Source of the DNA: Desulfuromonadales bacterium
GTDB lineage: Bacteria; Desulfobacterota; Desulfuromonadia; Desulfuromonadales; SZUA-540
Reading direction: 5' to 3'
DNA: 64,000 bases
Assembly (NCBI GenBank): GCA_033549025.1
Contig: JAWSUS010000008.1
Span: 59,905 to 123,904, forward strand
Part shown: piece by piece, positions 1-20,588 of the stretch
Numbering within the stretch: position 1 is the stretch's first letter
Layout of the letters: the number at the start of each line of letters is the position of its first letter
Position numbers and translations under genes: made by a program
The notes under the pieces: model-generated
What the model saw: only the letters and a program-made list of their open reading frames with translations
Told to the model about the DNA's origin: nothing
Database searches by the model: none

Positions 1-3000
1 TCGTTTGTAGTCGGCGCTCTTGTCGGTCTTGCGGATGTAGGCGAGCTTTTCGAGATACATCTGCTCGGCGTTTTCCGCCGTGGCCACCCGGGTATCGATC
101 CCAAGCTGTTCGAGCTTTTCCAGCATCGCCTCGACCCGTCCAGGGGTGGCGTCGCCGTCCAGGATCATTTCCAGCTCGCCGCGCTGGGCATAGAGGTTGG
201 TGTCGGACCAGGGGCGATAGCGGACCCGGGTGCCGTCCTCGAAGGTGACGGTGTACTGGTGCCCGTCCTGCATGCGGGAGTTGTGATTGAACAGCGTCCG
301 GTTGTCGATGTCGTCGGCCTCGACGGTAATGGTGCCGGACCCGATCCTGCGCTTGGTATGGGTCACCTTGCCACGTTCCACCTTGAACGGCGGTTTCTCC
401 TTGGGTTTCTGCGCGTCGAGCTTGGGCAAGTACTGATCGAATACGCCGTTGGTGGCCCGGTCCCAGTCGACGGACTCTTCGATCTCCTTGACCCATTTCA
501 GATAGTGGTCCGCCATCTCCTTGACCTTGGGGTCGGCGCTCTTTTGCAGGGTCTCCAGTTTCTTGCGCAGGCGCAGGGCCTTGTCGATCTTGGTCCGGTT
601 GTACTTGCCGTCGCCCACGTGGAAGTTGACGTTTTTGACGGCGTCCAGAATCGTCGGAAAGAAGCTGTCTTCGACCAGCGGTTGTCCCTTTTCCCCGGCC
701 GCCGTCTGCACATACCTGCGCAGCACCTCGTCGATGCGGCGATCAGTGTCCGGCCGGATCTTCATCTTGACCACGGTGCGCTTCTTCCCCTTGAAGCTCT
801 CGGTGAAGATCAGCGCGTTCTGGTCCTCCACGTCGCCGCTGTCGAAGGGCAGCGTCTTGCCCTGCCAGCCGAGTTTGCGGGCCTCCTCGACCAGGGTCTC
901 TTCGGCGGAGGAGAGCAACTTTTTCTTCCCGGTGGCGGCGCTCAGCTTGTCGAAACGGAAGCCCCGATCCCCCAGCACATCGGCGTAATAGCCTTCGAAG
1001 TCCCGCCTGAGATTGTGTTTCCGCTCCAAGACCAGATCATAGAAATGCCGCAGCCCGGCCGGGTCCTTGGAAAACCGTCCCTCGGCGTAGGGCCGCAGCA
1101 GATCGAGGTAATCCTCGTCGGCGATCTTTTCGACTTCCTGGATGTAGCGAAAGGTCGGGTTCGGATCGACCCGTACCTTCCCTTCCTTGGCCGCCCGGAA
1201 GACCTTGTTGTAAAACGGCTCTTCCTCGCCGCAGACACCGTTGGGGTGATAGTCGAGCGAGAGCTTGTCCTGCCCCAGAAACTTGAATGCCTGGCCTTTG
1301 TCGATGCCGTAGACGCGACCGTCCCGGGCGCGGATGAACTGCTTGGAATGTCCGTCGTGGTTGGCGATCAGCCAGTCGACCACATGCTCGCGCTGGATCT
1401 GCTCCAGTTCGATGGTGGTCAGATCCTGGGGCAGGATGTTGCGAAAATCGAAGTCGTCCCGCAGATCGGTGCGCCATTTCTGGATGGAGCCGGTGCGGCC
1501 GTTCAATTGGATGGTGCGCACCTCGATGGAATGGGGGTCGATCAGGCGGCCAATCTTGTAGGCTGCTTCCTCTCCGAAGGCGATGAACTCATCGTCCTTG
1601 CGGCCAACGGGCTTGAACAGCCATTTGTCGCCGTTTTCGTCGGTCCAGAACTCCTTTTCATGTGCGCCGCCGACAGCGGCCTTGCCGGTTTTCTTGAATT
1701 TTGACGGCAGACCTTTCTGCTGCCACGCTGAATCGACTGTGGCGAACTCCGCGCCTTTCTTGCCGATCTTGGCCTCGGGCGGCTTGACCGGGCTCGGCTG
1801 TGGAGCCGGTTTCGGCGGATCTTTCTTCGGCGTGGCGGGCTTGGCAGGAGCGGTTTTCTTCTTGCCGCCATGCTTTTCGGCCCAGGCGGCGTGCTTGGTG
1901 TCGATGCTGGCCTGAACCGCCTTGATTTTCGCGGGATCGGTCTCGGTGAAGAGCGTGGTCAGCTCGTCTTTGTTGGCCCACTGCCAATACTGGACCTTGG
2001 TCTCCTTGGCGAGCGTCTTGAGTTCCGTCGATTTCAGCTTGCCGACCTGGTCCTGGAAGAGCTGTTTCTTGAGGGCGATTTCCTTGCTGTGGGCTGCAAG
2101 CAGATCCTGGGGCAGATCGGTGCCGCCGGAAACCGCCTGTTCCGCCTTGGCAATCGCGTCGAGGAAATCCTTGTAGCCGGTTGGCGTGTCGGGAACGACC
2201 ACGGCCTTGGCGGCGTCTTCGAGGGCCGTTTTCTGTTTCAGGATCAACTTCTGCTTGGCCTCGTCGACCGCCTTTTTCTTGACCGACTCGGCCATGTCGG
2301 CACCGGCCTTCTTCTGCAGCGCCTCGACGAGCTGCTGTTTGTTCTTGAGGATGCCGATGCCGTGCTTCTGTTTGGCCGCCGCGAGTTCCTTGCCCATCAG
2401 GCCGCTGTGGTCCACACCGGGCTCCAGCTTATCCAGCAGCTCGATGGTCTCCTGTTTGGTCATGTTGAGGGAGATGCCGTTCTCCTTCGCCATCTCCTTG
2501 AGCTGCTGGGCAGTCATGCCCCCCAGCCCCTCGGCGGGAGGGATCTTCGCCATCTGGGCGGCGAGCAGCTTGGCCTGTTTGAGTTCCGCCTGCTTCAGTC
2601 CGAGCAGCTCGACCAGTTCTTCCTTGGTCCGCAGCAGACCGATCTTATGTTCCTTGAGCTTGGCGCTGAGCGCCGCTCCGGCCAGGTCGCCGTGATCGAT
2701 CCCGGGTTCGGCCAGATCGAGCAACTTGATGAAATCGGCCTTGGTCCGGGCGATGGCCACGCCGTTCTGTTTCGCCAGGGTCTGGAGCTGTTTGACCGTC
2801 AGCGAGCCGAGGTCGGCGATGTCGCCGTTTTCAAAGGCGCTCTTGAGCTTGGCATTCTCCTTGGCTTGGGCGTCGGCCATGCCTTCCAGTACGTGGGGCG
2901 GGAGAATGCAGGCGTCCCCCTGAGATGCCTGTGCGGCTGCCTTGGCGGCCATCTCGCTGCCGCAGACGGTCATCGGCCAAGCCACGATATTTGTGCAGCG

Positions 3001-3813
3001 GCAGTGCGGATGCGCGGGTTGCTGGGGGAACTTGTCGATTAGAAAGATCTTGCCGTCCAGGCCGCCGCAGACCGGGCACATGCGCTCGTCCTCCATGGCC
3101 AGCCATTCCAGCTTCTGGATGCCGACCCGCTCGTGGAACTTGAGCCTGCCCATGTTGTGGGCGCGGAGGACCTCGGTGCGGGCGATCATCTCCATGCGGT
3201 ACTGCGCCTTGCTGAACACCCGGCTTCCGGCCTGACGAAAGGAATCCTTGTCGATGATCACCTTGCCCATGTCCCGGACGATGTCGTCGGCTCCCTTGCC
3301 CGTGGCGACGCCGTTCAGGATGGTGCGCTTGATGCCGTCTGCGAGTTCGCGGTGGACGTCACCGGCGAGCGTGAGGTTGTACTGAGCCATGAAGTCGAGG
3401 GCGTTGGTGTCGACAATGGTGAACACATTGGTGGCCAACTTGTCGATGCCCTCGGGCTTCAGGTCGGCGTAGAACGGCAGCGCCGCGTCGGCGAGCTCTC
3501 CGATTCCCTGCTGGATGCCGAGCTTGAAGGAGTCCTTGGTCGTCTTGCGAAAGACCAGGGTCTGCTCCCGCTTGAGCCGCTTCATGGTGTCGTCGAGTTC
3601 GAGCTGGAGCTTTTCCAGCCCCTTGAGCGCGGCGAGCTTGTTGTCCGGCAGGGAGCCGAGGGAGCGGTACTGGAGAATGGCGCGGGCGACCTCGTCTTCG
3701 GCCTGTTTCAGCGCCTGGGTGAGCTGGGCCGTGACCTGGTCGTTGTAGCGGTTGCGGGCCGTCAGGCTTTTCAGGGTGGCGACCTGGATGCGCTGCTTGA
3801 GGTCCGATGGCAT
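1..3813 (-). CDS. MuF (SPP1 gp7-like) head morphogenesis protein fused to HeH/SAP-like repeats and a HipA/PI3K-like kinase domain; >1271 aa, truncated by the window edge
   Basis: Hand translation from ATG 3813 (TGATG overlap with the portal stop) stays open to base 1. MuF motifs MIARTEVLRAHN, EDERMCPVCGGLDG, HPHCRC; kinase-like motifs WLFKP, DWLIANHDGHSKQF, YGIDKG. Confidence 0.85.
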   Translation of the reverse strand, partial: MPSDLKQRIQVATLKSLTARNRYNDQVTAQLTQALKQAEDEVARAILQYRSLGSLPDNKLAALKGLEKLQLELDDTMKRLKREQTLVFRKTTKDSFKLGIQQGIGELADAALPFYADLKPEGIDKLATNVFTIVDTNALDFMAQYNLTLAGDVHRELADGIKRTILNGVATGKGADDIVRDMGKVIIDKDSFRQAGSRVFSKAQYRMEMIARTEVLRAHNMGRLKFHERVGIQKLEWLAMEDERMCPVCGGLDGKIFLIDKFPQQPAHPHCRCTNIVAWPMTVCGSEMAAKAAAQASQGDACILPPHVLEGMADAQAKENAKLKSAFENGDIADLGSLTVKQLQTLAKQNGVAIARTKADFIKLLDLAEPGIDHGDLAGAALSAKLKEHKIGLLRTKEELVELLGLKQAELKQAKLLAAQMAKIPPAEGLGGMTAQQLKEMAKENGISLNMTKQETIELLDKLEPGVDHSGLMGKELAAAKQKHGIGILKNKQQLVEALQKKAGADMAESVKKKAVDEAKQKLILKQKTALEDAAKAVVVPDTPTGYKDFLDAIAKAEQAVSGGTDLPQDLLAAHSKEIALKKQLFQDQVGKLKSTELKTLAKETKVQYWQWANKDELTTLFTETDPAKIKAVQASIDTKHAAWAEKHGGKKKTAPAKPATPKKDPPKPAPQPSPVKPPEAKIGKKGAEFATVDSAWQQKGLPSKFKKTGKAAVGGAHEKEFWTDENGDKWLFKPVGRKDDEFIAFGEEAAYKIGRLIDPHSIEVRTIQLNGRTGSIQKWRTDLRDDFDFRNILPQDLTTIELEQIQREHVVDWLIANHDGHSKQFIRARDGRVYGIDKGQAFKFLGQDKLSLDYHPNGVCGEEEPFYNKVFRAAKEGKVRVDPNPTFRYIQEVEKIADEDYLDLLRPYAEGRFSKDPAGLRHFYDLVLERKHNLRRDFEGYYADVLGDRGFRFDKLSAATGKKKLLSSAEETLVEEARKLGWQGKTLPFDSGDVEDQNALIFTESFKGKKRTVVKMKIRPDTDRRIDEVLRRYVQTAAGEKGQPLVEDSFFPTILDAVKNVNFHVGDGKYNRTKIDKALRLRKKLETLQKSADPKVKEMADHYLKWVKEIEESVDWDRATNGVFDQYLPKLDAQKPKEKPPFKVERGKVTHTKRRIGSGTITVEADDIDNRTLFNHNSRMQDGHQYTVTFEDGTRVRYRPWSDTNLYAQRGELEMILDGDATPGRVEAMLEKLEQLGIDTRVATAENAEQMYLEKLAYIRKTDKSADYKR

Positions 3814-5321
3814 CAGCGGAGCTCCCGGCGGTCGATGAAGCGACAGGCCGGGGCGTCGAAGGTGCGCTCGCTGTTGTGGACCCGGCAGTGGTTGGTGTCA
3901 GCAATGAAGTGGCTGCACTCGTCGCACACGGCCGCATCGCCGGTGGACTCCAGGTCGCCCGACCAGACCAATGCCGCCTCCGCCGTGGGTTCATCGTCCT
4001 CGGCCGGAATCCCGAGCATCTTCCGGGCGCGAGGCACGCTGAGGATGCCGGAGACGACCATATCCACCACCGGCTTCACCTGCTTCTCGTCCATCAGGTC
4101 GATCTGCTTACGTTCGGTCTCGCGGTTGGCTGCCTCGATGTCCGGGTCCAGGTCCATCTTGAGCTGAAGGCTGGAGCGGCTGATGAGCTTGCGGTCGTAG
4201 AGTTCGATGAGGAGCTTCTTGAAATCGACCGCGTCGCTTGGGTCGAGGTCGTTGAAGATGAACTGGATGCTTTTGTCGCCGTGGCCGTTCAGCTCCATCC
4301 AGTCGTCGAACACCCAGTCGAGGAGCTTGCGGGCGGCCTGTTTGATCTCGCGGATCATGACCATCATCTTCTGCATGCTCACCGAGGCGGTGGCGAAATT
4401 CGGGCCGTCTCCGGTCACCAGCGAGCGTGACAGCCCCAGGGCCACCACGATGTCTTCCTTTACCTCTTTGACCTTGTCCTCGACGTTGAGGACCTGACCG
4501 TCGGTGCCGTGGGTTTCGACGTTGACGTAGAACGGGACCACCAGGCCGCTTTTCATATCCATCTTGTTGACCATGTCGCGAACCTGTTCGAGCATCCGCT
4601 GGTCCGGCATCACCATCTTCTGGCCGAACGCGCCGCCCACCTTGAGCAGGCGAAAGGGCGTGGCCCAGCGCTTGGCGATGGCCTGTTCGGCCCGGCGGTA
4701 GTCGCGCAGCAGTTCGATGGCTTGAAATGCGGGAAGCACGAGGGAGTTACCCCGGGGCGAGAAGGCCGGAGCATCCCATTTGAGGTGGACCACCTGTTCG
4801 ACGGGCAGCGGGATGGATTCCCCGCCGCCGGGGGTGTCCTCGGGAAATTGCCGGGCCTCGATCAGCTCGCCCTGGGCGTATTTGACTTTGACCGAAACCG
4901 GGTTGACGCAGACCAGTTCCTCGATGTCCTGGCCGGACTTGGTGAAGCGCTTGAAGCCGATGGCGTCACCTTTCACCAGGAGCTGAAGAACCATGTCCTT
5001 GATGAATTGCGTGATGTTCAACCGCCAGGCGGCCTCCAGTGCCTGCTCCTTGAGGGTCTCGTCATCGCTGGTGATCTTGATCTCGTCGCCCACGGCGAAG
5101 GTGCGCCAGGAGTTGACGCAATTCTTCACCAGCGGCTCCTCGACGTAGTATTCCCAGGCCTTACGGGCGCGTTCTTCCCAGGTGGCCGGAATAGCCTCGG
5201 CGGCGTTGACCTTGCTGAAGGCCGCCGAGTCGAGCGCGGCCGCTGCGGCCAGCGGCGCGATGACAAAGCCGGTGGTGTCCAGGCTTTCGGGTTGTTCGTC
5301 CTGATGGGCGGTGCTTTCCAC
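3813..5321 (-). CDS. Phage portal protein
   Basis: Lies between TerL and the MuF gene; portal-like stretches (LLVKGDAIGF, VVHLKWDAPAFSPRGNS); GTG start at 5321 after a GAGGA RBS. Confidence 0.75.
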   Translation of the reverse strand: MESTAHQDEQPESLDTTGFVIAPLAAAAALDSAAFSKVNAAEAIPATWEERARKAWEYYVEEPLVKNCVNSWRTFAVGDEIKITSDDETLKEQALEAAWRLNITQFIKDMVLQLLVKGDAIGFKRFTKSGQDIEELVCVNPVSVKVKYAQGELIEARQFPEDTPGGGESIPLPVEQVVHLKWDAPAFSPRGNSLVLPAFQAIELLRDYRRAEQAIAKRWATPFRLLKVGGAFGQKMVMPDQRMLEQVRDMVNKMDMKSGLVVPFYVNVETHGTDGQVLNVEDKVKEVKEDIVVALGLSRSLVTGDGPNFATASVSMQKMMVMIREIKQAARKLLDWVFDDWMELNGHGDKSIQFIFNDLDPSDAVDFKKLLIELYDRKLISRSSLQLKMDLDPDIEAANRETERKQIDLMDEKQVKPVVDMVVSGILSVPRARKMLGIPAEDDEPTAEAALVWSGDLESTGDAAVCDECSHFIADTNHCRVHNSERTFDAPACRFIDRRELR

Positions 5322-5395
5322 GTGATCCTCTCGGTAGTTTCGGCCATGACAGCCACACATCCGGCCCGTGTGGGCCGAACCCGGCTCGATGCCGG

Positions 5396-5426
5396 TTACT
5401 TACCGGAGCGGGGTGGAAAGCGTCGG
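5396..5426 (-). promoter_or_regulatory. Element-specific promoter-like motif CCGAC-N14-TCCGGTAAGTAA upstream of portal
   Basis: Exact copy of a bipartite motif found five times in the element, always upstream of a gene. Confidence 0.7.
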
Positions 5427-5435
5427 AGGATGCGA

Positions 5436-6959
5436 TCAGATGAAGACCGGATTGGTGAGCACGGGTTTGAGCGAAACCACCTCTTCGCCGACCGGGTCGA
5501 GGTTACCTTCTTCCCGGATCAGCATGGCGCATCGCACCGCGTCGATGATGTGGTCGTTGCCCTTGGAATAGATGATCTTGCCGTCCCGCAGGGTGTAGGT
5601 GTGGGTGGTGAATTGGTCTTCCACCTCCAGGTCGTCCGAGGGGAAAATGACCTGCTTACGCTGTAGGGCTCCGTTGATGAGGCTGGTCATCAGCTCCTTG
5701 GTTCGCTTCTTGATTTCCTTTCCGTCCCGCACCGCCAGCCGGGTCATGCCGCCGAAGTCGTATCCCTTGAGCCTGCCTTCCAGCTCCAGCCCTTTGTACT
5801 TGTCCAGGGTGAGCAGCTCCTGAACCACCGCCAGACCGTTTCCGCCGTTGTCCACGCCGATGCCCGCCGGGGTGTAGTAACGCTCCAGCAGCGCGATGAT
5901 CTGGGCGATGTGCGGATAGGAAACGTGTTCAAGATGCACGCGCAGGATCATCTTCAGCAGCGTCCGCTCGCCGATCTCCGTCTCCTGGAATACGACGATC
6001 TCGGTGGGGTCGTTGGTGTAGCCCAGGTCGCCGCCAACCCAGAACTGCCCGCTGCGGGGCGTGAGGTTGAGCAGCATCTCCAGCCGGTCGTGGGCCGCTT
6101 CCTCAGTGTCGCAATCGCGCAGCTCGGAATCGGTGATGACGATCTTCTGATACTCCAGCAGATCTTGCCGACAGAGGTTGAACTGTTCGACATTGAAGGC
6201 CCCATAGGAGGGCTTGCCGTGTTCACCGGCCACTTCGTGCTGCCAGCCGGAACTGTCGCGGCCGCCGTAGAACTCCAGCAGTTCGGCCTCGCGATCCTCA
6301 GTCCAAAGAGGGTTGAGCCAGGACGGCCAGCGGAACACATGGAACTGCACCGACGAGGTGAGCCGGTAATAGGTGGTGTCGCGCAGGCCGTTGGGCGTGG
6401 AGTAGATGCGTAGCGTCCCCCCGGCCTTGAGGCACTGGCGCAGCGCCTTCCAGGCCCGTTCGGTCAGCCAGGCTCCTTCATCGACCCAGACGCGGCCCAC
6501 GTGCAGGGACCGGAAGGCGTCGCCATAGGCCCCGGCCGGGCGGAAATAGAGCACCGAACCGTTGGTGAACTCCAGCCGGAAGTAGGGTTTGCGGTGGATC
6601 TTGGGCTTGCCGTACTTGGTCAGGGCAATGCTGTTCATCAGATCCGGGTTGGTGTCGAGCTGGAACTCGATCTCCTCGATGATGGTATCGAGGTGGCCCT
6701 GGTGCGGAGCCGCGATGAGGCCCTGGCCGCCTCGGGTGGTGAAGGCGTAATGGAGCGCGTCGGTCGAGAGCACGATGGACTTGCCCACGTCCCGGCCGTC
6801 GAGGTGAATGATGTTCTTGGCCGGGCAACGCAGGTCCTCCACCTGGTGCGGCCAGTAGTCGCGGCCTGAGCCATCCCGGTTGTAGAGATAGGCTTGCCCC
6901 CACAACACGGGGTCGCTCAGGGTTGCCGCGAGTTTGCGCTCCTTGTCGGTTACCGCCAT
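5436..6959 (-). CDS. Terminase large subunit
   Basis: Walker A-like GRDVGKS, Walker B VWVDEG, coupling motif STPNG, RNase H-like nuclease motifs GGDLG and NDHIIDA; start taken at MAVTDK. Confidence 0.9.
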   Translation of the reverse strand: MAVTDKERKLAATLSDPVLWGQAYLYNRDGSGRDYWPHQVEDLRCPAKNIIHLDGRDVGKSIVLSTDALHYAFTTRGGQGLIAAPHQGHLDTIIEEIEFQLDTNPDLMNSIALTKYGKPKIHRKPYFRLEFTNGSVLYFRPAGAYGDAFRSLHVGRVWVDEGAWLTERAWKALRQCLKAGGTLRIYSTPNGLRDTTYYRLTSSVQFHVFRWPSWLNPLWTEDREAELLEFYGGRDSSGWQHEVAGEHGKPSYGAFNVEQFNLCRQDLLEYQKIVITDSELRDCDTEEAAHDRLEMLLNLTPRSGQFWVGGDLGYTNDPTEIVVFQETEIGERTLLKMILRVHLEHVSYPHIAQIIALLERYYTPAGIGVDNGGNGLAVVQELLTLDKYKGLELEGRLKGYDFGGMTRLAVRDGKEIKKRTKELMTSLINGALQRKQVIFPSDDLEVEDQFTTHTYTLRDGKIIYSKGNDHIIDAVRCAMLIREEGNLDPVGEEVVSLKPVLTNPVFI

Positions 6960-7237
6960 CAGTGCATTCCTGTCCTCAAGGCGTTGCCGAGGATGGTGCC
7001 CACCAGTTCCGTCAGGATCTGCTGCACGGCCAGGGTGTTCTTCCGGTCGTGGACAGCTTCCTGAATGTCGATGATGGCCTGGTCCAACTCCGCCCAAGCC
7101 AGGTACTGCTGCTGGGCCGCTTCCAGACGGCCGAGGGCGTTCTCTATCCGTCCCGCCGCCAGCTCGGTGCCGATTTCGACCAGGGCCTCACCGGCCTGGC
7201 GGACGGCATCGCTGTTTTCCTGAAGGATCTCTTTCAT
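6959..7237 (-). CDS. Hypothetical helical protein (92 aa)
   Basis: ATG after GGAGG; overlaps both neighbouring genes. Confidence 0.7.
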   Translation of the reverse strand: MKEILQENSDAVRQAGEALVEIGTELAAGRIENALGRLEAAQQQYLAWAELDQAIIDIQEAVHDRKNTLAVQQILTELVGTILGNALRTGMH

Positions 7238-7506
7238 TGGCCTGCCTCCTGGTTCGAGCCGTTGGCCCACTGGTCAAGGGCGTCCACGGCGGTCTGCAGG
7301 CGCAGGCCGACACCGGTCAGGCGCTCGGCGTCCGGGTGGCCGACCTCGCGTAGCGCCTTGTTGGCCTCGGTCACATACTCGGGTGTGTGGCGGTTGACGG
7401 TGGCCACTGCCGACTGGATCTGGGCCGGAGGCCGGTAGGTGGCGCAGCCGGTCATGATCCCGGCAAGGACCAGCGGGATGGTCCATTCGAGTGTCTTCTT
7501 CAACAT
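7234..7506 (-). CDS. Predicted lipoprotein (90 aa)
   Basis: MLKK + hydrophobic stretch + lipobox-like IMTG-C; AGGAG RBS. Confidence 0.7.
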   Translation of the reverse strand: MLKKTLEWTIPLVLAGIMTGCATYRPPAQIQSAVATVNRHTPEYVTEANKALREVGHPDAERLTGVGLRLQTAVDALDQWANGSNQEAGQ

Positions 7507-7646
7507 GTTGATCTCCTTTGGTTTATGGGTTTGGGGCACATGCAGAAAGATCTCTGCAAACACTTGATTTCCAACGAAATAGAAGCGTCATTGGATGTGA
7601 CGCGGGATGGTCCCGCATCCACGAAAACCGGAACCGGAGGCAGGCC

Positions 7647-7841
7647 ATGACCTACGACAGAAACCGCCAGCAGGCACTCAAGGCGTACCGAGAAAAGCAG
7701 GAGAACATCGCCCGGCTGATCGAGGGCATTCGCGGCAAGCTCGAAGCGGACGCGAAGCAGCCGGACATCACCTGGGCGAGCGTCGGCTCCCTCGGCCACG
7801 TCGAGGAACTGCTGCGGGAGCTGGACGAGTTCCTGTCCTGA
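7647..7841 (+). CDS. Small hypothetical protein (64 aa), first gene of the tyrosine recombinase cassette
   Basis: ATG after GGAGG; amphipathic helical sequence; same direction as the next two genes. Confidence 0.7.
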   Translation: MTYDRNRQQALKAYREKQENIARLIEGIRGKLEADAKQPDITWASVGSLGHVEELLRELDEFLS

Positions 7842-7874
7842 ACACACCGGGCCACCGACAAAGGAGACATCGAC

Positions 7875-8249
7875 ATGACCGAATGCACCGTGCATCAAGC
7901 CGCCGAGGCTTTCATCGGCTACCTGCGGGAATCCGGAAAGAAAGAGCGGACCCTTTACACCTACCGGAAGGACCTCGACGCGGTGGAGGCCTTCTTCGGC
8001 GCGGATCGCCAGCTCGCCGAGATCCGGCTTCCCCAGGTCGGCAAGTTCTACAAGTCCGACCTGCTGCTCAAACTCCCTGACGGCAAGGAGCGGGCCGAGC
8101 GCACCATTGCCAAGACCGTCCGGGTGTTCCGCATGATGATGGTCTGGGCCAGGGAGTCGGGGCGCATCGAGGAGCTGCCGCTGCCCAAGAGCACGCCCAT
8201 GGGCCACAGCCGGGTAAAGGAGTCCAGCGATGAGCAACCGAACGGCTGA
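7875..8249 (+). CDS. Stand-alone integrase N-terminal SAM-like (core-binding) domain protein, no catalytic domain
   Basis: FIGYLRESGKKERTLYTYRKDL ... AERTIAKTVRVFRMMMVWA parallels the N-terminus of the adjacent recombinase; AAGGAG RBS. Confidence 0.75.
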   Translation: MTECTVHQAAEAFIGYLRESGKKERTLYTYRKDLDAVEAFFGADRQLAEIRLPQVGKFYKSDLLLKLPDGKERAERTIAKTVRVFRMMMVWARESGRIEELPLPKSTPMGHSRVKESSDEQPNG

Positions 8250-9144
8250 CCTCGATCTGACGGGCGCGACAGAGGCGTTCTGTGCCCGCCTGTCGGCCGA
8301 AGGACGCTCCCCGGCGACCATAGCCGCATACCGCCGGGACCTCGCCCTGGTAGTCCGCGTGGCCGGGGAGCTGGCCCCTGGGATCGTCTGCCGGGAGGTC
8401 ACGGTCGGGTTCCTCGACCAGGTGTTCTCCGCCGGGGCGGTCACTGAGAGTGAGCGAGGCCCACGTTCGGCGGCCTCGCTCCATCGGATGAAGGCGGCGG
8501 TGCGGGCCTTTTTTGCCTGGGCCGCCGAGACGGGCGTGGTCGGTGACAACCCGGCCCGGTCCATCCGCATGCATCGGTTGCCAAGAAAGCTGCCAGTCTT
8601 CCTGACTACCGCCGAAAAGAAACGTCTGCTCAAGGAGCTCAAGGGGCGGACCGATTTCTCCACGCTGCGCGACCGCGCCATGATCGAGGTGTTGCTGGGC
8701 ACGGGGATCAGGCTTGGCGAGCTGGCCGCGCTCGACATGGATGACATCGACCTCGACGCCAAGCATCTGCGGGTGCGGGCCAAGGGGAATGTGCCGCAGG
8801 TCAAGTTCATCAAGACCGACCTCCGCACATTGCTGCGCCGTTACCTGGCCGAGCGTCGTCGACACGGCCGCCCAGAAATGGAAGCCCTGTTCCTGTCGAA
8901 CCGGGACGGCAGACTCTGCCAGCGGCAGATAGCCAACCGGCTCGCCCACTGGCTGCGGAAGGCCGGGATCGAAAAGGAACTGACGCCGCACGGGCTGCGG
9001 CATACCTTCGCCACCCACCTCTACGGCGCGACCAATGACCTGCTCGTGGTGCAGCGGGCCTTGGGGCACCGGGACGTGTCCACCACCCAGATCTACACCC
9101 ACCTCGTGGACGGTCAGCTCGAGGAAGCCCTCGAACGCCTTTGA
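8230..9144 (+). CDS. XerC/XerD-like tyrosine recombinase
   Basis: Full catalytic set: GTGIRLGEL (R), RAKGN (K), HGLRHTFAT (HxxR), LGHRDVSTTQIY (H, Y). Confidence 0.95.
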   Translation: MSNRTADLDLTGATEAFCARLSAEGRSPATIAAYRRDLALVVRVAGELAPGIVCREVTVGFLDQVFSAGAVTESERGPRSAASLHRMKAAVRAFFAWAAETGVVGDNPARSIRMHRLPRKLPVFLTTAEKKRLLKELKGRTDFSTLRDRAMIEVLLGTGIRLGELAALDMDDIDLDAKHLRVRAKGNVPQVKFIKTDLRTLLRRYLAERRRHGRPEMEALFLSNRDGRLCQRQIANRLAHWLRKAGIEKELTPHGLRHTFATHLYGATNDLLVVQRALGHRDVSTTQIYTHLVDGQLEEALERL

Positions 9145-9345
9145 TCCTTCCGGACCCGACGATGGGAGCGGCCTCGGCTGCTCCTGTTTTCGTTGGGCGA
9201 GACAGTGTCGAAGACAGTGAATGACAGTGCCCGCAGAAGAACACATCCGCCGATGATGAATGATCATGACGGAGGGTCTCTACATCCCGGGTGGGGCGGG
9301 AAATATCGATTGACCGGAATTTCTCCTTCGCTGTCTGTCGGCCGC

Positions 9346-9575
9346 ACATCGCTATAACTGCTTGGCTTGTGCGCTCCAGTCGCGGAACACACATGGCAAT
9401 ATCTGCTTGGCATATGCGAGGGCCGTTGCCGAAGGAATGGCTGTTTGCGGGGCTTGTCCGGTTCGGCCTGGGTCTCGACATGCCAATATCTACTTGGGTT
9501 ATGTGAGAGAGCCCCGGCGTGAACATGCCTATATCTGCTTGGCTTATGCGGTTCGGCTTATGCGCACACATGCCA
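9346..9575. repeat. Array of about 5.5 units with 45-bp period: ~28-bp conserved core plus ~17-bp variable segment
   Basis: Core ACATGCCWATATCTGCTTGGCTTATGCG starts at 9346, 9391, ~9435 (degenerate), 9478, 9523 and, partially, 9568. Confidence 0.85.
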
Positions 9576-9668
9576 AGCGGATATCGGGAGCTGCTGGAGG
9601 AAGTCGAGGAGTGGAAATGATGATCGACGGCCGGTGAATGCCGATTCCGAAAGTGCAAGGAACACGTC

Positions 9669-9757
9669 TTATCCGCAATTCCTGGTGTAGCTGTCTGCCG
9701 CAAGTCGCCGTGTGCCGGGGTCATCGGAAAAGCCCTCCATGGTGTTATCCGCAATTC
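9669..9757. repeat. 13-bp direct repeat TTATCCGCAATTC (9669-9681, 9745-9757)
   Basis: Exact duplication; the second copy contains the stop codon of the TerS-like gene. Confidence 0.75.
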
Positions 9758-10245
9758 TTTCCGCGTTTCTTGCGGCCGGAGGTTTTCGTTGCCGGGGCGT
9801 TGGCGGCCTCGGCCACCTTCTCGAGCAGCGCCGCCGCCCATTCCGCCGGAGAGGTCTGCGGGCCTTTCGGCTCCTCACCCTCGCGGGCAATCTTGGTGGT
9901 CTTGAGATCCTTCATGTGGCAGCGGATCATCCGGTCGAGCTTTTCGGCGGCGTCGGTGTTCCCCTCGATCTGGGCGCGGACCAGCTTCACCGAATAGACG
10001 CCCACCAACTCCACCTGCAGGAAGTCGCTGGACTTGTTGAACTCGAAGTCCTGGTTGAGTCGGTCGATGATCGCGTCGAACATGACCTTCTCTTCCGGAG
10101 TCAGGCAGCGGTCGGCGAAGATGCCGTGACGCAGCCGGTTCTGGTTGCCCTCGGGCGCACCAGGCCCGCGCCGGGGCGGTTCGGTCTTACCCTCGTTGCG
10201 GTGCCAGCGGTCCAGCGTCTCTTTGTCCGGTTTGTTCAGTGCCAC
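9745..10245 (-). CDS. Probable terminase small subunit
   Basis: GAPEGNQNRLRHG resembles the GAPxGNxNAxKHG motif of TerS proteins; upstream of TerL on the same strand. Confidence 0.65.
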   Translation of the reverse strand: MALNKPDKETLDRWHRNEGKTEPPRRGPGAPEGNQNRLRHGIFADRCLTPEEKVMFDAIIDRLNQDFEFNKSSDFLQVELVGVYSVKLVRAQIEGNTDAAEKLDRMIRCHMKDLKTTKIAREGEEPKGPQTSPAEWAAALLEKVAEAANAPATKTSGRKKRGKNCG

Positions 10246-10336
10246 GTGGAAATCCTGCCGAATATTGTTTTCCCAAGCCGGGATGCGGGGCGGGAGGCCG
10301 ATTTAGCCTCCAAACGCGCTCCCGCCGGTTCAGGGG

Positions 10337-10367
10337 TTACTTACCGGAAGCGGCGGCCAACTGTCGG
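10337..10367 (-). promoter_or_regulatory. Element-specific promoter-like motif upstream of the TerS-like gene
   Basis: CCGAC-AGTTGGCCGCCGCT-TCCGGTAAGTAA; the final TAA is also the stop of the upstream gene. Confidence 0.7.
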
Positions 10368-10615
10368 TCCCGGTCCTGTTTTCGTTCGGCGGCGATGATC
10401 TGATTGACCCGGCGAGTGGTCACTCCAGCGAGGTTGGAGATCTCCTGGCTGCTGATCCCCTGCAGATGAAGGGCAAGCACCAGGTCGCGGCGCTCCTGGT
10501 AAAACCTGCTCGGTGCAGGAACCCAGAGAATCCCGGTGTAGTGCTTCTGGATCTGCTCGAAGAGTTCCTCGGGCAGGACTTCCTTGGCGTTGGCGTAGCG
10601 TTTCTTTTTCTTCAC
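10337..10615 (-). CDS. Small HTH transcription regulator (Mor/CD3324-like)
   Basis: YANAKEVLPEELFEQIQKHYTG.LWVP N-terminus plus C-terminal HTH (ISSQEISNLAGVTTRRVNQII). Confidence 0.7.
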   Translation of the reverse strand: MKKKKRYANAKEVLPEELFEQIQKHYTGILWVPAPSRFYQERRDLVLALHLQGISSQEISNLAGVTTRRVNQIIAAERKQDRDRQLAAASGK

Positions 10616-10618
10616 GGC

Positions 10619-11389
10619 TCAATCCTCCACTTTCTTCATCCACGGCTGCGGCACGTCCGGGTTGTAGAACCGCAGCGTGCTGGGACGCCCGGACTTCGGC
10701 CCGTGGATAATTTCGATAGAACGCTCGGTGACCTCGCCAATCTCCTGATCGCCATCGACGAAGCAGACCAGGCCGTAGTCCTCGCCGCAGGGAAACCGGA
10801 AGCGGCCCTGGTTCTGATAGAGGCGTGCCTCGGACCAGCCCTTGGCCATGGCCTCCTCACGGATGGCGTCGACCTTGGCGACAGCCTGGGAAGTCACCGG
10901 CTGCTTACATTTCCAAGCTTGGTTCCCGGGATAAATCCAGTCCTTTCTGGGAGTTTCGACGGGTTTCTCCTGGGACTCGGGACGAAGCGCGGGTGGCCGG
11001 TAGTTCTTCGGGGAAAAGGACTGCAGGACCTCCTGGAGGCTTTCCTTGCCGAATTCCCGGATGGCCAGCTCCTGCAGGGCGTTGAATCGCTGCCGCAGCG
11101 TATTCCAGGCATCCTCGGGGAGCTTTCCGGCCTTGTGCGCGGCTTGGGCGGTGACCATGCGGGAACGTAGCCAGGCAAAGTATTCAGGCGACAGACGGCG
11201 ACACAGCGTGCCGTCGATCTCCATGTCTTCAGGCCAGTCGCGTGCGTCTTCGATCTCGTGGACGTCGAGCCCAGTGGAGACATAGATGGCGGGCTGCGGT
11301 GGTTGCGGTGGTAATAATGGGACTTCACATCCGGCCGAGGCGTCCTGACCTCCGGCGGTGTGCTTGATCATGGTTTTCAGAAGGCTCAT
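10619..11389 (-). CDS. Hypothetical protein (256 aa)
   Basis: Clean ORF downstream of a promoter motif; no family recognised. Confidence 0.7.
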   Translation of the reverse strand: MSLLKTMIKHTAGGQDASAGCEVPLLPPQPPQPAIYVSTGLDVHEIEDARDWPEDMEIDGTLCRRLSPEYFAWLRSRMVTAQAAHKAGKLPEDAWNTLRQRFNALQELAIREFGKESLQEVLQSFSPKNYRPPALRPESQEKPVETPRKDWIYPGNQAWKCKQPVTSQAVAKVDAIREEAMAKGWSEARLYQNQGRFRFPCGEDYGLVCFVDGDQEIGEVTERSIEIIHGPKSGRPSTLRFYNPDVPQPWMKKVED

Positions 11390-11429
11390 GGTTTCAGGCT
11401 CCAGAAATACGGGTTAATCGCTTTTCCCG

Positions 11430-11460
11430 TTACTTACCGGATCTGCCCTGAAACCGTCGG
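11430..11460 (-). promoter_or_regulatory. Element-specific promoter-like motif
   Basis: CCGAC-GGTTTCAGGGCAGA-TCCGGTAAGTAA, about 40 bp upstream of ATG 11389. Confidence 0.7.
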
Positions 11461-11471
11461 TGACCATCTGC

Positions 11472-11823
11472 TGCGGTGGATACGTGCGGTGGCTGCGGTG
11501 GTCGTGCGGTGGAAGGTTTCCTCGTCCCACCGCAGGGCATGGCTCTTTGTTTGTTATTTGTTTTTAGATAGTTATGAAGAAAGAGAAGATAGAGTGCGGT
11601 GGTTGCGGTGGTATTTGGGGAATGTCTCTCTCGCTGGGCCGGAATTTCTCTAGCGGGAAACGCCAGGTTGGTAGGAAGGAAAAATATTTCAGCCCATAGG
11701 GGGTGAGACCTCTGGGTTTACCACCGCAACCACCGCAAAGGCCATGAAAGCTCTGTCTGGCAAGGGTTTGGCGTGCGGTGGTTATCCACCGCAAGGGACA
11801 GCGGTGTTCACCGCACCACCGCA
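11472..11823. repeat. Putative replication origin: 12 TGCGGTGG octamers in both orientations with an AT-rich tract
   Basis: Direct copies at 11472, 11485, 11494, 11505, 11595, 11604, 11774; inverted at 11527, 11721, 11730, 11786, 11816; AT-rich ~11545-11592; immediately downstream of the primase-helicase. Confidence 0.75.
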
Positions 11824-11876
11824 AAAGAAAAGGACGCCCGAGAGCGTCCTGGATGATTTGGTCAGATGGCGTGGAG

Positions 11877-14800
11877 TTAGAGATTGGCAGTCTTGACGAT
11901 CCGGTATTCGAAGTTCTTGGTGTGGGCGTTGCGCTGCCGGTCGATGTCAAACCCGGCGTCCCGGATGACGTCCAGGTCGTTGCTGATGCGCCGACCGAGC
12001 TGGGCGGGCTTCTTGTATTCGAACTCGAGGTTGAATTCCCGGCCGACCCTGCGCAGCGCCGCGAGCAGCCGTCCCGCCGACACCGGTTCCATGGTGTTCT
12101 CGTTCTCGAACCTCACCTGATAGCGTTCGATGAACCCCACCACGTGGTTTGCCCGGTCGTCCTCGCCGTAGCGGGCCTTCTCGTCCAGTTCCACCGCGTT
12201 CCGGTAGGCATGGAAGAGCGACGCCAGCGCCGTGGCAATGGGGTTCGACTCCCGGGCCATTTCCTGGCTGGTGTCGTTAATGGAATGGATCTGCTCGATG
12301 AACAGCGGGCTCAGCTCCTCGAGTCCGGTGGTCACCTCGTGCTCCTCGGACCCGGCCAGCATCATCAGATACATCAGGCTCAGATAGTCGTTGCACCGGC
12401 GCTTGCCATGAGTCGGCATGGTTCGGTGCAGCAGACGCATGACCTGTTTCTGGGCTCCGTCCCGAATCATCGCCAACACATGGCTCGTCCGCTTCATGAT
12501 GGCCGAAATGATCAGATCCCGGTTCTGCTGGATGGCGGAGATGACCTCCGATTCCAGAAAGCAGTCGCTGGCCTGGTTGGCGAGGTCGAAGTTGATGACG
12601 AAGGACCTCGACAGTATCTCCGAAAGCTCCCCGCACAGCGGCTCGATGCCGGTGGTGTTCAGCAGGCATTTGGTCCGCTCGGTGATGGTCTCGCTGTCTG
12701 TGCCGCTCTTGCGTTTCTCCTTGGCGATGCCGGTGATGCTGGTCAGCATGAAGGTGGTCAGATCCTCGGTCATCTGCTTGACCTCGATGTTGTCGAGGAC
12801 GATGAGCGGGTTCTGCGAGCCATCGGTGTAGTTCGCCGCGTCGGTGGCTTTCTTGTGCTGGGGCTCGCCGTAAAGCAGCGTCGACGTGATCTTGCTGGCG
12901 GTGGTCTTGCCCGATCCGGCCGAACCCTCGAAGCGGGTCATGGGCCGCGTCCCGGCGAAGTCGATCAGCAGGAAACAGGAGAGCCAGGAAAGGATGAGAA
13001 ATCGATCCCCCTGCGGACAGGTCATATTGCCCACCAGCAGATCGACCAGGAGCCGGTCCGCCTCTTCGAGGTCGGCGTCGGGCAGGAATTTCAGCGGCTT
13101 CATCTTGCGCGAGCCGTCCAGGATGATGCCGTCCTCGTTGCCGCCGTTCTTCATGATCTGAATCTCGTCCGGGGTGATCTTGGCGATCTCGTGCTCCGGA
13201 TTGTTCAGGTTGAAATAGACGGTGTAGGAGGCCACATCGGTGTGCAGCCAGGAAAAATGGTCGCGCACCTGGCCACGGATCATCGCCAGGCTTGGCAACA
13301 CCTCGAAAAATGTCCGTCCGCCGTTGGAGGTCGGCACCATGCCCGCGTGCTTATAGAGCATGGCCGCGTAATGGCGCTTGCGGCCCCGGTCCGGCGAATC
13401 CATCCAGTAGATGGCGTTGTCGAAATACATGAACGGCTCGCCCTGCAGGGTGTGAAAGAACTGGGCACCGTTGGCGGTGAACCAGTCGTAGGCGGCCTCG
13501 GCGGCCAGGGTGTAGTCGGGAGCGCCGTTCTCCAGTTCCGTGTCGATCAGCACCTCGTCGACCCGGGCGCGGCATGATCCGGGCATCGCGCCGGACATCC
13601 GCTTGGCCTTCTTCTTTTCATTACGGAACTCGACCTTGCGGTCCTTCTGGATGGCGCGGATCTGCTCTTTCAGGGTGGCCATCGAAACGCCACCGCCGAT
13701 GCGCTCCTGCACCAGCTTCAGCAGGCGGGCCTGTTCCAGCGGCGACTGCTCGGAAATCTCCCTCAGGATCGGTTCGAGCAGGCGGTTGCGTTCCTCCTCA
13801 TCAGCGCCCTCGGGTAGCGAGCGCACGCCGAACTCGATGGGCGTGCTGGCTTCTGCGAGCAGGCGTTCGAAATCCTCCCGGGTATGCCCGGCGGCAATGT
13901 AATCGTTGACGTCTATCTTGGCGGTGGCGAGAAGCGCCTCGGCCGCCTGAATCTCTTCGGCGGGACGTCCCGCCAGCAGCTTGGCCAGCTCCTTCGGCCC
14001 CACGCTCGCCGTCAGGCCGAAGCGTTTGGTCAGCTCCTGCCGGGCCGAGATCTGTGTCTCCGACAAGGGCAGCGTCACCAGGCGGGTGTCGATCTTGTGT
14101 TCGGCCAGGGTGCGAGCGGTTTGCAGCGCCCCCTTGAGACCGGCCTGGGAGAGTTCGTTGTCCTGGCAGATGTAGACGGTTTCGACGCCGCGCAGCTTGG
14201 GGATCAGGCGCTCCCAATCGGCGGCCCGGATGCGAACGGTGACCGGCGACACGGTGGGCAGGCCCAGTTGCATCAGCGCCAGGCAATCGGTCACCCCCTC
14301 GGTGATGATCACCTTGCCGGGCCTGGCCAGCAGGCAGTCCTCGTTGAACAGCAGCGCGTTGTTGATGAAGTCGGCGACGTAGGGCCGCTGGTGCTCGTCG
14401 TGAACCGGCAGTTTCTTGTATTTCCCTTGCTCCCAGCCCACGTCCGGGGTCCACGGCGTCTTGCGGCCGATCATGAACACCACCCGGCCACGGCTCCAGT
14501 AGGGAAAGACGATGCGGCGCTCGAAAAATGGCGTCAGGCCATCCTGGCTCGTGGGCCGGAAAGCGCCGGTGGCGGCAAGCTCCCGCTTGGAGAAGCCGTC
14601 TTCGCCCCGGGTCAGTTGGGCGACCGCGCCGGACGCGTTGTCCGCGTAGCCGATCAGGAGATCGTCGATGGTCTCCTCGCTCAGGGCGTATTTGGATTTC
14701 AGCCAGTCGAGGACCTCCGGCGACTCCTTGAGCCTGGCGTGGTAAAGCCTGGCCAGCGCGGTCAGCGCGTCCTTGACCCGCAGTTCGAAGGCGCGGTCGG

Positions 14801-15191
14801 CCTCTGTCTGGGCCAGACGCTCCTGGCTGAGGCCATAGCGCGACAGCGGCGGCAAGCCCGCCTTCTTGGCGAGATAGTCCCGGGCCTGACGGTGGCTGTC
14901 CGGCATCGGACCGGATTGCCCGGCGGTGACCGAGCCCGTCTGAATGAACTCAACGAGCTGCAGCACATCACCGCCGACTCCGCAGCCGAAGCAGTACCAG
15001 CCCTGCTTGTCGAGCATCACGTGCAGCGACAGACGCGACTGGCTCTGATGGTTGGGGCAGTCGCACATCAAGCGCTGGCCGGTCTCTTGGGTGATCCGTC
15101 CCGGCAGGAGTGCCCGGGCCACGTCACCGATGTCCATCTCGGTGACGAGCCGGTAATACTCCCTGACGTTATCCGTTCCGCCCATACTCAT
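11877..15191 (-). CDS. DNA primase (CHC2 zinc finger + TOPRIM) fused to a C-terminal P-loop helicase-like domain
   Basis: CPNH...WYCFGC, IITEGVTD, ICQDNE; C-terminal EGSAGSGKTT and LIVLDNIE. Confidence 0.9.
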   Translation of the reverse strand: MSMGGTDNVREYYRLVTEMDIGDVARALLPGRITQETGQRLMCDCPNHQSQSRLSLHVMLDKQGWYCFGCGVGGDVLQLVEFIQTGSVTAGQSGPMPDSHRQARDYLAKKAGLPPLSRYGLSQERLAQTEADRAFELRVKDALTALARLYHARLKESPEVLDWLKSKYALSEETIDDLLIGYADNASGAVAQLTRGEDGFSKRELAATGAFRPTSQDGLTPFFERRIVFPYWSRGRVVFMIGRKTPWTPDVGWEQGKYKKLPVHDEHQRPYVADFINNALLFNEDCLLARPGKVIITEGVTDCLALMQLGLPTVSPVTVRIRAADWERLIPKLRGVETVYICQDNELSQAGLKGALQTARTLAEHKIDTRLVTLPLSETQISARQELTKRFGLTASVGPKELAKLLAGRPAEEIQAAEALLATAKIDVNDYIAAGHTREDFERLLAEASTPIEFGVRSLPEGADEEERNRLLEPILREISEQSPLEQARLLKLVQERIGGGVSMATLKEQIRAIQKDRKVEFRNEKKKAKRMSGAMPGSCRARVDEVLIDTELENGAPDYTLAAEAAYDWFTANGAQFFHTLQGEPFMYFDNAIYWMDSPDRGRKRHYAAMLYKHAGMVPTSNGGRTFFEVLPSLAMIRGQVRDHFSWLHTDVASYTVYFNLNNPEHEIAKITPDEIQIMKNGGNEDGIILDGSRKMKPLKFLPDADLEEADRLLVDLLVGNMTCPQGDRFLILSWLSCFLLIDFAGTRPMTRFEGSAGSGKTTASKITSTLLYGEPQHKKATDAANYTDGSQNPLIVLDNIEVKQMTEDLTTFMLTSITGIAKEKRKSGTDSETITERTKCLLNTTGIEPLCGELSEILSRSFVINFDLANQASDCFLESEVISAIQQNRDLIISAIMKRTSHVLAMIRDGAQKQVMRLLHRTMPTHGKRRCNDYLSLMYLMMLAGSEEHEVTTGLEELSPLFIEQIHSINDTSQEMARESNPIATALASLFHAYRNAVELDEKARYGEDDRANHVVGFIERYQVRFENENTMEPVSAGRLLAALRRVGREFNLEFEYKKPAQLGRRISNDLDVIRDAGFDIDRQRNAHTKNFEYRIVKTANL

Positions 15192-18323: not shown

Positions 18324-18335
18324 GGTCGGATCTCC

Positions 18336-19106: not shown

Positions 19107-19132
19107 GGCTTCGTCTCCTTATGGTTGGGATT

Positions 19133-20484: not shown

Positions 20485-20554
20485 GGTTGAACTCCTCTTT
20501 CGTTCAGGTTCTGATTTCCGAGGCCCCGGATAGCCGCACCATGCGGCACGGTGC

Positions 20555-20585
20555 TTACTTACCGGAGCCGGAGCCGATGCGTCGG
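20555..20585 (-). promoter_or_regulatory. Element-specific promoter-like motif heading the replication/recombination operon
   Basis: CCGAC-GCATCGGCTCCGGC-TCCGGTAAGTAA directly after the sigma-factor stop codon. Confidence 0.7.
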
Positions 20586-20588
20586 AGA

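Follow-up and report, generated by a model that had tools for sequence, protein, structure and literature searches.

Does a protein built into a phage head carry enzymes into the host cell and, if so, what do they act on there? This question is raised by a gene at the left edge of a 64,000-nucleotide stretch of a Desulfuromonadales genome (the window; G000:C8:59905-123904, where G000 is assembly GCA_033549025.1 and C8 is contig JAWSUS010000008.1), whose frame is open on the reverse strand for 1271 codons from window position 3813 to 1. The first-pass annotation of the window had read this frame, noting its absence from the list of open reading frames (ORFs), as a giant MuF head protein with helix-extension-helix (HeH)-like repeats and a HipA-like protein kinase. 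The gene was indeed missing from the list, solely because its frame runs off the window edge. The leftward extension proposed at that stage showed that the gene continues for 776 bases beyond the edge to a stop codon at C8:59128 and encodes 1529 amino acids (aa) in a single frame; no stop or frameshift, which had been named as fatal to the reading, separates the MuF and kinase regions. It also brought into view a C-terminal DarT-like domain and two small downstream genes, d1 and d2. The domains are ordered MuF, five HeH-like units, a Lys/Pro linker, a kinase, a 375-aa middle part and the DarT-like domain. Judged from structural models, this one polypeptide joins MuF to a two-enzyme cassette, consisting of a predicted kinase and a predicted ADP-ribosyltransferase (ART), and is more than a kinase alone. 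Its features, all on the reverse strand, are as follows.

G000:C8:59128-63717 (L001:9129-13718), whole MuF-kinase-ART gene, 1529 aa (ORF reading in the genome)
Window 1-3813, part of the gene inside the window, aa 1-1271 (ORF reading)
Window 2968-3813, N-terminal region and MuF domain, aa 1-282 (Pfam, PHROG and NCBIfam scans)
Window 2599-2817, repeat unit 1, aa 333-405, two HeH-like halves (self-alignment, library scans)
Window 2314-2529, repeat unit 2, aa 429-500, duplicate of unit 1 and best Rho_N match (self-alignment, Pfam)
Window 1939-2052, fifth, weaker HeH-like unit, aa 588-625 (phrog_390, E 6.4e-5; self-alignment)
Window 1744-1866, Lys/Pro-rich linker, aa 650-690, poorly conserved (composition, alignment)
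Window 934-1716, PI3/PI4K-like atypical kinase domain, aa 700-960 (AlphaFold2 (AF2) model, fold searches, alignment), with kinase residues G716, K734 (codon at 1614), E749, D820 (1356) and D838 (1302) placed by alignment
Window 1-921, middle part, aa 965-1340, of which aa 1272-1340 lie off the window (AF2 model)
G000:C8:59128-59697, off the window, C-terminal DarT-like ART fold, aa 1341-1529 (AF2 model, fold search, alignment)

First, we examined the kinase. All motifs listed in the first-pass annotation were found where it had placed them, including DWLIANHDGHSKQF (aa 813-826) at window 1377-1336. Among 140 kinase domains from distant representatives, K734 was kept in 139, D820 in 140 and D838 in 139; by motif position, we take these residues to be the ATP-binding Lys, the catalytic Asp and the Mg-binding Asp, respectively. 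Because the three are near-invariant across these domains, the alignment indicates that the motifs are not a chance resemblance. Structural prediction, which had been suggested for this region, yielded a PI3/PI4K-like atypical kinase fold. The AF2 model of aa 690-1529 (73 sequences) had a mean predicted local distance difference test (pLDDT) score of 94.1, and the best 50 listed Foldseek matches were all kinases, with CtkA giving the best target TM-score (0.46). VIA-align ranked PI4KIIa first (4pla; Z 16.0, root mean square deviation (rmsd) 3.7, 237 aligned residues; a further PI4KIIa entry, Z 15.6), followed by CtkA (3akj; Z 14.1, rmsd 4.1, 211 aligned), Fam20 (Z 13.7 and 12.7) and MavQ (Z 12.5), with HipA (Z 10.6 and 9.1) and HipT (Z 9.7) below all of these.

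The description as HipA-like consequently stands at the superfamily level, at which the core motifs are shared with HipA and HipT (PMC8262856), but not as membership of the HipA family: the isolated kinase domain scored 18.1 bits with Pfam HipA_C, under the cut-off of 30.5, and PI4KIIa and CtkA rank higher as folds. The available text of PMC8262856 discusses, for Hip kinases, an autophosphorylated Ser/Thr beside the Gly-rich loop and a DNA-binding antitoxin. Here, no Ser/Thr was present in aa 710-722 and none was conserved in this loop among the 140 domains, as is also described there for HipG; no DNA-binding antitoxin gene adjoins, the upstream gene being the portal gene and d1 and d2 having no Pfam or NCBIfam match. 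As modeled, the kinase is likely an active member of the HipA/PI4K superfamily outside the HipA family. The reading as a kinase holds, given a kinase fold with intact catalytic motifs, whereas protein is one of several candidate substrates, because the kinases closest in fold act on lipid, sugar or protein and the predicted fold does not discriminate among these substrates. Phage polyvalent proteins (PMC5512222) resemble the present protein in their large size, in combining several enzymes and in being presumably injected together with the phage DNA, but in the available text their kinase is missing its C-terminal lobe and carries an insertion between His and Asp, and their ART is of the H-Y-D type. 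Assignment to that kinase clade was rejected, since the model keeps a full helical C-terminal lobe and H819 and D820 are adjacent, with no insert.

Next, we focused on the sequence past the kinase, of which the first-pass annotation had reported over 300 aa as unrecognised. For the middle part this remained so. Its model (pLDDT 94.3 for aa 965-1345) showed a beta-sheet domain with an inserted three-helix bundle and then a helical linker; Foldseek gave no match at E<=0.001, and VIA-align gave generic helical bundles and weak matches to transcription-initiation complexes and START-type proteins (Z 5.8-6.5), a lack of clear matches that does not prove a new fold. The end of the protein, beyond the window edge, proved to be recognizable as a DarT-like fold. 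VIA-align aligned aa 1334-1528 (model residues 645-839) with DarT1 (8baq; Z 11.1, rmsd 4.0, 164 aligned), and three further DarT entries followed at Z 9.3-10.4; together, the four entries (PDB 8baq, 7omu, 7omv and 7yk3) gave rmsd values of 4.0-4.1 over 146-164 residues. They were the only ARTs among the best 50 matches, which extended down to Z 8.0; no PARP-like or toxin ART was among these 50, which does not exclude weaker matches.

Conservation among 162 C-terminal domains was high at H1352 (145), R1382 (148), S1391 (160), D1395 (162), Y1403 (148), R1407 (152), D1438 (162), G1441 (162) and E1469 (161). The profile of the domain was compared with one of 21 DarT proteins (of 30 matches, after removal of short fragments), which gave three alignments. 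E1469 was aligned with the Glu of the DarT A-E-V/F-L strand in all three, the Y1403-R1407 strand with the DarT Y-F-x-x-R strand in two, and D1438 with the Asn of DarT D-x-N-A in one, a weak match; R1382 lay 1-2 columns off the DarT Arg, again in a weak alignment. According to the available text of PMC11543638, E152, R52, M71, N104 and D54 are essential in DarT1, and N104/H119 coordinate the base in DarT; the pairing of the Asn of D-x-N-A with N104/H119 is our own match, suggested by sequence. The C-terminal domain is comparable to DarT1/DarT2 in predicted fold, catalytic Glu, Y-F-x-x-R strand and possibly the base-binding residue. In contrast, DarT is described as a small stand-alone host toxin accompanied by DarG or NADAR and used against phages (PMC11543638), whereas the present domain ends a phage head protein and neither partner was matched in d1 or d2. 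From its model, the best reading of the domain is an active H-Y-E transferase that is closest to DarT but falls outside the DarT family. That both modeled enzymes, kinase and transferase, are active seems highly probable.

The C-terminal domain also had the fewest replacing changes in a comparison of codons between 11 near-identical loci and G000. Replacing versus silent changes numbered 10 vs 127 in the transferase, 75 vs 185 in the kinase, 83 vs 347 in the middle part, 147 vs 252 in d1 and 96 vs 125 in d2, comparisons that are not independent because all were made against G000. No family match to the domain was found in Pfam, NCBIfam or PADLOC. The ESM Atlas placed it in unnamed clusters, one set having DUF5846 on 25% of its members. 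Sequence-profile searches of the PDB gave nothing meaningful with alignments A1 and A3, and with alignment A9 they gave only VIP2-type ARTs, reached via the C-termini of relatives, and 4jw1 'Effector protein B' at E 2.8.

The N-terminal MuF domain, which had been placed at about 3813-2980, was borne out by Pfam Phage_Mu_F (PF04233; aa 160-275, window 3336-2989; 59.3 bits against a cut-off of 29.6) and by TIGR01641 (64.2 bits against 39.65, E 1.3e-17). The three repeat starts quoted in the first-pass annotation are present (at about aa 335, 430 and 590), and the duplication is real: the alignment of aa 333-405 with aa 429-500 scored 178, compared with a maximum of 52 among 1000 shuffles, and each of these units consists of two similar HeH-like halves. 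The unit at aa 588-630 is weaker, its scores being reached by 9 and 12 of 1000 shuffles. The HeH label itself lies near or below cut-off (Rho_N, 23.5 bits against 24.9, E 5.4e-5; SAP, E 0.028); the repeat region also matched phrog_3281 (endonuclease VII C-terminal part) at E 1.3e-8. The composition of aa 650-690, with 11 Pro and 11 Lys/Arg in 41 residues, agrees with the Lys/Pro linker described earlier.

The family is large. A search with aa 690-1529 retrieved 258 proteins among 8000 candidates, with PF04233 in 111 of the best 120 listed, and 2189 representatives at 50% clustering matched at E<=0.001, 150 of which were listed. Among the 127 listed representatives of at least 1000 aa, our own profiles detected both the kinase and the C-terminal domain in 116, and a wider kinase profile added four, giving 120/127 from a query that held both domains; in the remainder, the kinase alone was detected in five and the C-terminal domain alone in two. 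The four added relatives hold a divergent kinase subtype and are not kinase-free. In 131 of 136 matches, the C-terminal domain ended within 40 aa of the protein end. N-termini vary among MuF, portal-MuF, NUDIX and ART-PolyVal in 26 proteins picked for unusual architecture; the locus scan found no loci of the NUDIX-bearing relative P0194. In a sister group, two kinases stand in tandem (P0276-P0321; P0209, P0216, P0218, P0222, P0228 and others); some of these proteins are joined to further Pfam families, which we take from their accessions to be transglycosylase, GNAT and ParB-like.

We then examined the transcriptional setting of the gene, for which the neighboring features, all on the reverse strand, are needed.

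Window 5436-7097, terminase large subunit (ORF list and family scan)
Window 5396-5426, promoter-like motif CCGAC-N14-TCCGGTAAGTAA ahead of the portal gene (motif search)
Window 3813-5360, portal gene (ORF list and family scan), its stop codon overlapping the MuF-gene start codon at 3813, so that the MuF gene lies directly downstream
C8:58619-59131, d1, 170 aa, candidate inhibitor, overlapping the MuF-gene stop codon (ATGA)
C8:58269-58622, d2, 117 aa, candidate inhibitor, overlapping the d1 stop codon (ATGA)
Copies of CCGAC-N14-TCCGGTAAGTAA, window 5396-5426, 10337, 11430 and 20555, and C8:58222, 52830, 44389 and 37414

The motif has eight copies (at most one mismatch on a 13-base core), all on the coding strand and within the prophage that carries the gene, which makes up 1.9% of the genome; they stand ahead of operons, and none was found elsewhere in the genome. 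Its core was present in eight of nine more distant relatives examined. Because the copy ahead of the portal gene is followed by the next one only after d2, the portal gene, the MuF gene, d1 and d2 likely form one transcription unit, as far as sequence can indicate. The motif copies are possibly promoters for a sigma-like protein of the phage itself. A small sigma-70-like protein is encoded at window 20589-21173 on the reverse strand (region 2, E 8e-5; region 4, E 4.8e-5; both under cut-off), and a phage sigma factor could partly explain a wide host range. In four RNA-library runs, contigs span the entire stretch evenly, in one run as part of a 66-kb piece; this coverage is uninformative on expression, because flat cover likely reflects DNA.

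When loci with 1100 bases of flank were clustered at 90% transferase identity (26 clusters), d1 and d2 were both present in 23, d1 alone in one and neither in two. The locus with d1 alone (L144) also carries the divergent kinase subtype; this one case hints that the transferase is the partner of d1 and the native kinase that of d2. No Pfam domain or informative name was seen in any of the 120 d1 homologues listed (the best 120 of 188), and d1 fell into unnamed clusters of the ESM Atlas. Kinship of d2 with McProf gp55/Onyinye gp17 and of d1 with Pan1_16 was considered and was unsupported (profile E>=0.12). In MuF polymorphic toxins, 89.4% of 191 toxin genes have a small downstream ORF according to the available text of PMC5576092; because of this pattern and of their position, we infer that d1 and d2 are putative immunity genes, although only d2 (117 aa), and not d1 (170 aa), is shorter than the 150 aa used there for small immunity genes.

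These features, taken together, suggest a virion-packaged, injected two-enzyme effector whose transferase most likely acts on nucleic acid and which is held off by d1 and d2 during assembly, a reading to which we assign a probability of roughly 0.5. It draws on the facts that MuF proteins are head components and that head-packaged ARTs are a recognised early-infection strategy (PMC9503650; PMC5512222), T4 Alt being head-packaged and injected (PMC5512222). By this analogy, packaging and delivery of the protein are probable. A nucleic-acid target for the transferase is an even call. As in known MuF proteins, the protein would be made late, bound at the portal in few copies, like the 1-2 copies of SPP1 gp7 (PMC5576092), and delivered with the genome, while the HeH-like repeats would keep it attached to DNA. 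Fold and conserved residues predict ATP as the substrate used by the kinase and NAD+ as that used by the C-terminal domain. In the weakest step, the transferase would, like DarT, ADP-ribosylate a base in single-stranded nucleic acid, the kinase would phosphorylate host proteins, and both would modify the host in the first minutes of infection, stalling host replication or disarming defences until the phage establishes itself. In the producing cell, d1 and d2, expressed from the same unit, would keep the enzymes off, d1 more likely being paired with the transferase.

Several observations weigh against this reading. The DarT fold match is moderate (rmsd of about 4 Å), neither Pfam DarT (PF14487) nor another family matched aa 1300-1529 at E<=1, the DarT profile comparison was weak (probability 3-12%, E 0.002-0.013), and no aligned partner for the DarT1 Met (M71) was seen in its alignments. 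Two of the 26 clusters lack both d1 and d2, and these genes match no family in Pfam, NCBIfam or PADLOC, so that they do not look like DarG, NADAR or HipB. The presence of both domains in the query biases the 120/127 count. A shared fold reveals no substrate, and T4 Alt, the characterised head-packaged phage ART, modifies proteins (PMC5512222). Finally, strong toxicity of an injected enzyme is hard to reconcile with a temperate life style unless the dose is small.

The gene arrangement resembles that of MuF polymorphic toxins (PMC5576092) in the N-terminal MuF1, the position directly after the portal gene, the temperate phage, the C-terminal enzyme domain and the small downstream genes; ARTs make up 14% of the 191 MuF toxins described there. 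It differs in having two enzyme domains and repeats, and in a C-terminal cassette that appears conserved, not swapped, within the lineage; the word 'kinase' does not occur in the main text of that paper. Nevertheless, MuF-kinase proteins with a VIP2-type ART end exist. MuF-ART fusions of the Alt/VIP2 and N4 families (PMC9503650, PMC7302621) likewise join an ART to MuF and are thought to be head-packaged, whereas the present ART is DarT-like, lacks a Pfam or NCBIfam model and has a kinase ahead of it. The HipA-like kinase of Gratiaviridae (PMC8008677) belongs to the same superfamily and its gene lies in the head module; a MuF fusion is not described in the main text, where 'MuF' does not occur. 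MuF-ART fusions and a head-module HipA-like kinase are thus already in print, and the MuF-kinase-DarT-like cassette appears as a new combination: no description of such a protein was found among the literature matches listed, and the supplements of PMC5576092, PMC5512222 and PMC9503650 could list one.

Relatives of the kinase in other phages bear on what the transferase modifies. Among 50,697 phage records, the kinase had 12 matches, all in mycobacteriophages: McProf gp54 and four related prophage proteins annotated as minor capsid-ART fusions, Onyinye-like 'ADP-ribosyltransferases' and Phrappuccino-like hypothetical proteins; the top viral fold match was an Onyinye ADP-ribosyltransferase. In McProf gp54 and Onyinye gp16, a kinase of the same family (33% and 30% identity, respectively) precedes a C-terminal ART, and gp54 is encoded after the portal gene. 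Unlike the present protein, their ART is VIP2-type (PF03496), gp54 begins with VG15 instead of MuF1, and the GenBank records name the ART only. Unannotated kinase domains of this family lie in McProf gp54 (L140:3648-7205), Onyinye gp16 (L142:4461-8483) and Phrappuccino gp195 (L143:5935-12027), the last having repeated C-terminal blocks that are ART-like by eye. A search with the McProf kinase region alone retrieved 115 proteins among 2787 candidates, 69 with a single kinase and 46 with tandem kinases. An ART was found in 67 of the 69, comprising PF03496 in 61, a weak VIP2-type match in five of six rescanned and a DarT-like domain in one; one of the 69 was not rescanned for a weak VIP2-type match. 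These counts do not represent independent events, because kin share architecture. By sequence, two unrelated transferase classes, VIP2-type and DarT-like, occupy the same slot after the same kinase family.

Since a VIP2/Alt-type ART can replace the DarT-like one in this position, the slot may be functionally interchangeable, and delivery could be the same with a C-terminal domain that modifies host proteins, as T4 Alt does, or destroys NAD+, its likeness to DarT being that of a shared H-Y-E fold. The class found in the 61 proteins is known for protein targets, protein targets are predicted for ARTs of phage polyvalent proteins in the available text of PMC5512222, and the sequence likeness to DarT is weak. 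On the other hand, the Asp that aligned once with the base-coordinating Asn of DarT is invariant (162/162), and the four ARTs among the best fold matches were all DarT. We regard this alternative as possible, with the odds clearly against it.

The pairing would also be expected if both enzymes served one pathway, in which a small-molecule kinase phosphorylates the ADP-ribose mark, or gates the transferase, and the modification resists host hydrolases. The nearest folds, PI4KIIa, Fam20 and MavQ, include kinases of ring hydroxyls; nearly all single-kinase proteins carry an ART, and the four long relatives with a divergent subtype did not lose the kinase. However, 45 of the 46 tandem-kinase proteins had neither ART type, and shared descent can account for much of the pairing. 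Moreover, Pan1_15, P0242 and P0266 have a DarT-like domain and no kinase that could be found; the first of these, gp15 of Pseudanabaena phage Pan1, shares MuF, the DarT-like domain (own profile, E 4e-46) and much the greater part of the middle region, but has no d1 or d2 and is annotated as a head morphogenesis protein only. A common pathway therefore seems doubtful.

The carrier of the gene is an element of about 62 kb (about C8:25.5-88 kb; window 1-28100). Family scans recognised terminase, portal, capsid, primase and serine recombinase genes, and tail sheath, tube, tape measure and baseplate genes were recognised by eye only; downstream of d2, off the window, lie a methyltransferase-prohead protease fusion, a small head-type gene and the major capsid gene. 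By gene content, the element is an integrated, myovirus-like temperate prophage. The serine recombinase (window 26107-27693) marks the element end adjoining a tmRNA gene (window 28534-28889, reverse strand; L226:12978-13330 in an Ectothiorhodospira assembly, where the recombinase end joins the host tmRNA near nrdR and glyA and the head genes are on a different contig). In G310, the match extends 37 bases into the tmRNA 3' end, and no full tmRNA was called in the 12 kb examined. In G000, a search for a direct repeat that would mark the two attachment ends gave nothing convincing. The other end is flanked by type I restriction-modification-like genes in G000 (C8:18000-25500) and by a BREX-like block in G309 (L225:1500-12800), both recognised by eye. 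A tyrosine integrase (PF00589) and an integrase N-terminal-like gene lie on the opposite strand between the terminase and replication genes (window 7875-9144, forward), and a 700-aa protein with a QueC-like domain (E 1.5e-8) is encoded at window 21869-23971 (reverse), in a stretch unmatched in several related copies.

A scan of GTDB genomes found 34 loci, 26 at 95% protein identity or more, with titles including Verrucomicrobiota, many Desulfobacterota genera, Rhodospirillaceae, Ectothiorhodospira and Hydrogenedentales; IMG/VR held 72 loci. DNA identity over about 22 kb was 95-97.5% in most full-length loci of the close group. Many loci are metagenome-assembled genomes (MAGs) and may be misbinned, as three short contigs in an archaeal MAG probably are. 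All five isolate genomes examined (Ectothiorhodospira, Desulfosarcina, Desulfobulbus, Desulfofustis and Desulfocarbo), one of them a complete chromosome, hold most of window 7100-27000 at 90-98% identity. With the phylum placement of these genera as we presume it to be, the sequences apparently represent a cross-phylum temperate phage, no description of which was found among the literature matches listed. In one chromosome, the replication region occurs a second time in diverged form (G310:C1:310000-327500; about 70% identity), and G311 also has two copies, at 94-97%.

The methyltransferase fusion joins a Dam-like adenine methyltransferase (PF02086, E 4e-25) to the prohead protease and a coiled-coil tail (L001:5770-8169, C8:55769-58168, reverse strand); L033 has an additional methyltransferase-like match upstream. 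Its place after d1 and d2 hints at a head loaded with self-protective DNA modifiers, and the enzymes might act on the DNA or head of the phage itself at packaging or entry, as a shield against restriction or CRISPR, with the HeH-like repeats keeping them on the phage genome; broad anti-restriction cover would help an element found in distant hosts. Against this, DarT acts on single-stranded DNA (PMC11543638), the ADP-ribose mark applied by hosts blocks phage replication (PMC9503650), and d1 and d2 contain no NADAR or macrodomain family, most other prophage genes being unscanned for one. Self-modification is accordingly hard to credit. Least likely, the enzymes would work as a toxin-inhibitor set within the cell that makes them, or in the lysogen, and would counter superinfecting phages, with MuF as scaffold or sensor only, as their DarT (PMC11543638) and HipA (PMC8262856) relatives among toxin-antitoxin and anti-phage enzymes and the superinfection immunity proposed for the Gratiaviridae kinase encoded between portal and capsid genes (PMC8008677) might suggest. 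Against this, the gene is coupled to that of the portal and stands behind a motif common to other structural operons, and the full protein has no PADLOC match.

The reading as an injected two-enzyme effector bears on the role of MuF-fused enzymes on infection, for which this family of 2189 representatives offers a large, conserved and unannotated case. The family is directly testable, because two active sites and two candidate inhibitors are defined. The repeated pairing of the kinase with two unrelated ART classes points to a general head-borne module missed by annotations, gp54 and gp16 being named for their ART only. As the carrier prophage is nearly identical in isolates of different phyla, the injected enzymes probably act on very conserved targets. 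DarT chemistry is known from hosts acting against phages, and a DarT-like enzyme wielded by a phage would turn this direction around. In its fullest form, which we consider unlikely, a phylum-crossing temperate phage would inject a head-borne DNA-base ADP-ribosyltransferase coupled to a kinase of the same pathway that phosphorylates the ADP-ribose mark or gates the transferase. If this were true, DarT, a host anti-phage weapon, would have been turned into an injected phage weapon, and kinase plus ART would represent a recurring two-step head modification module, built at least twice with unrelated transferases.

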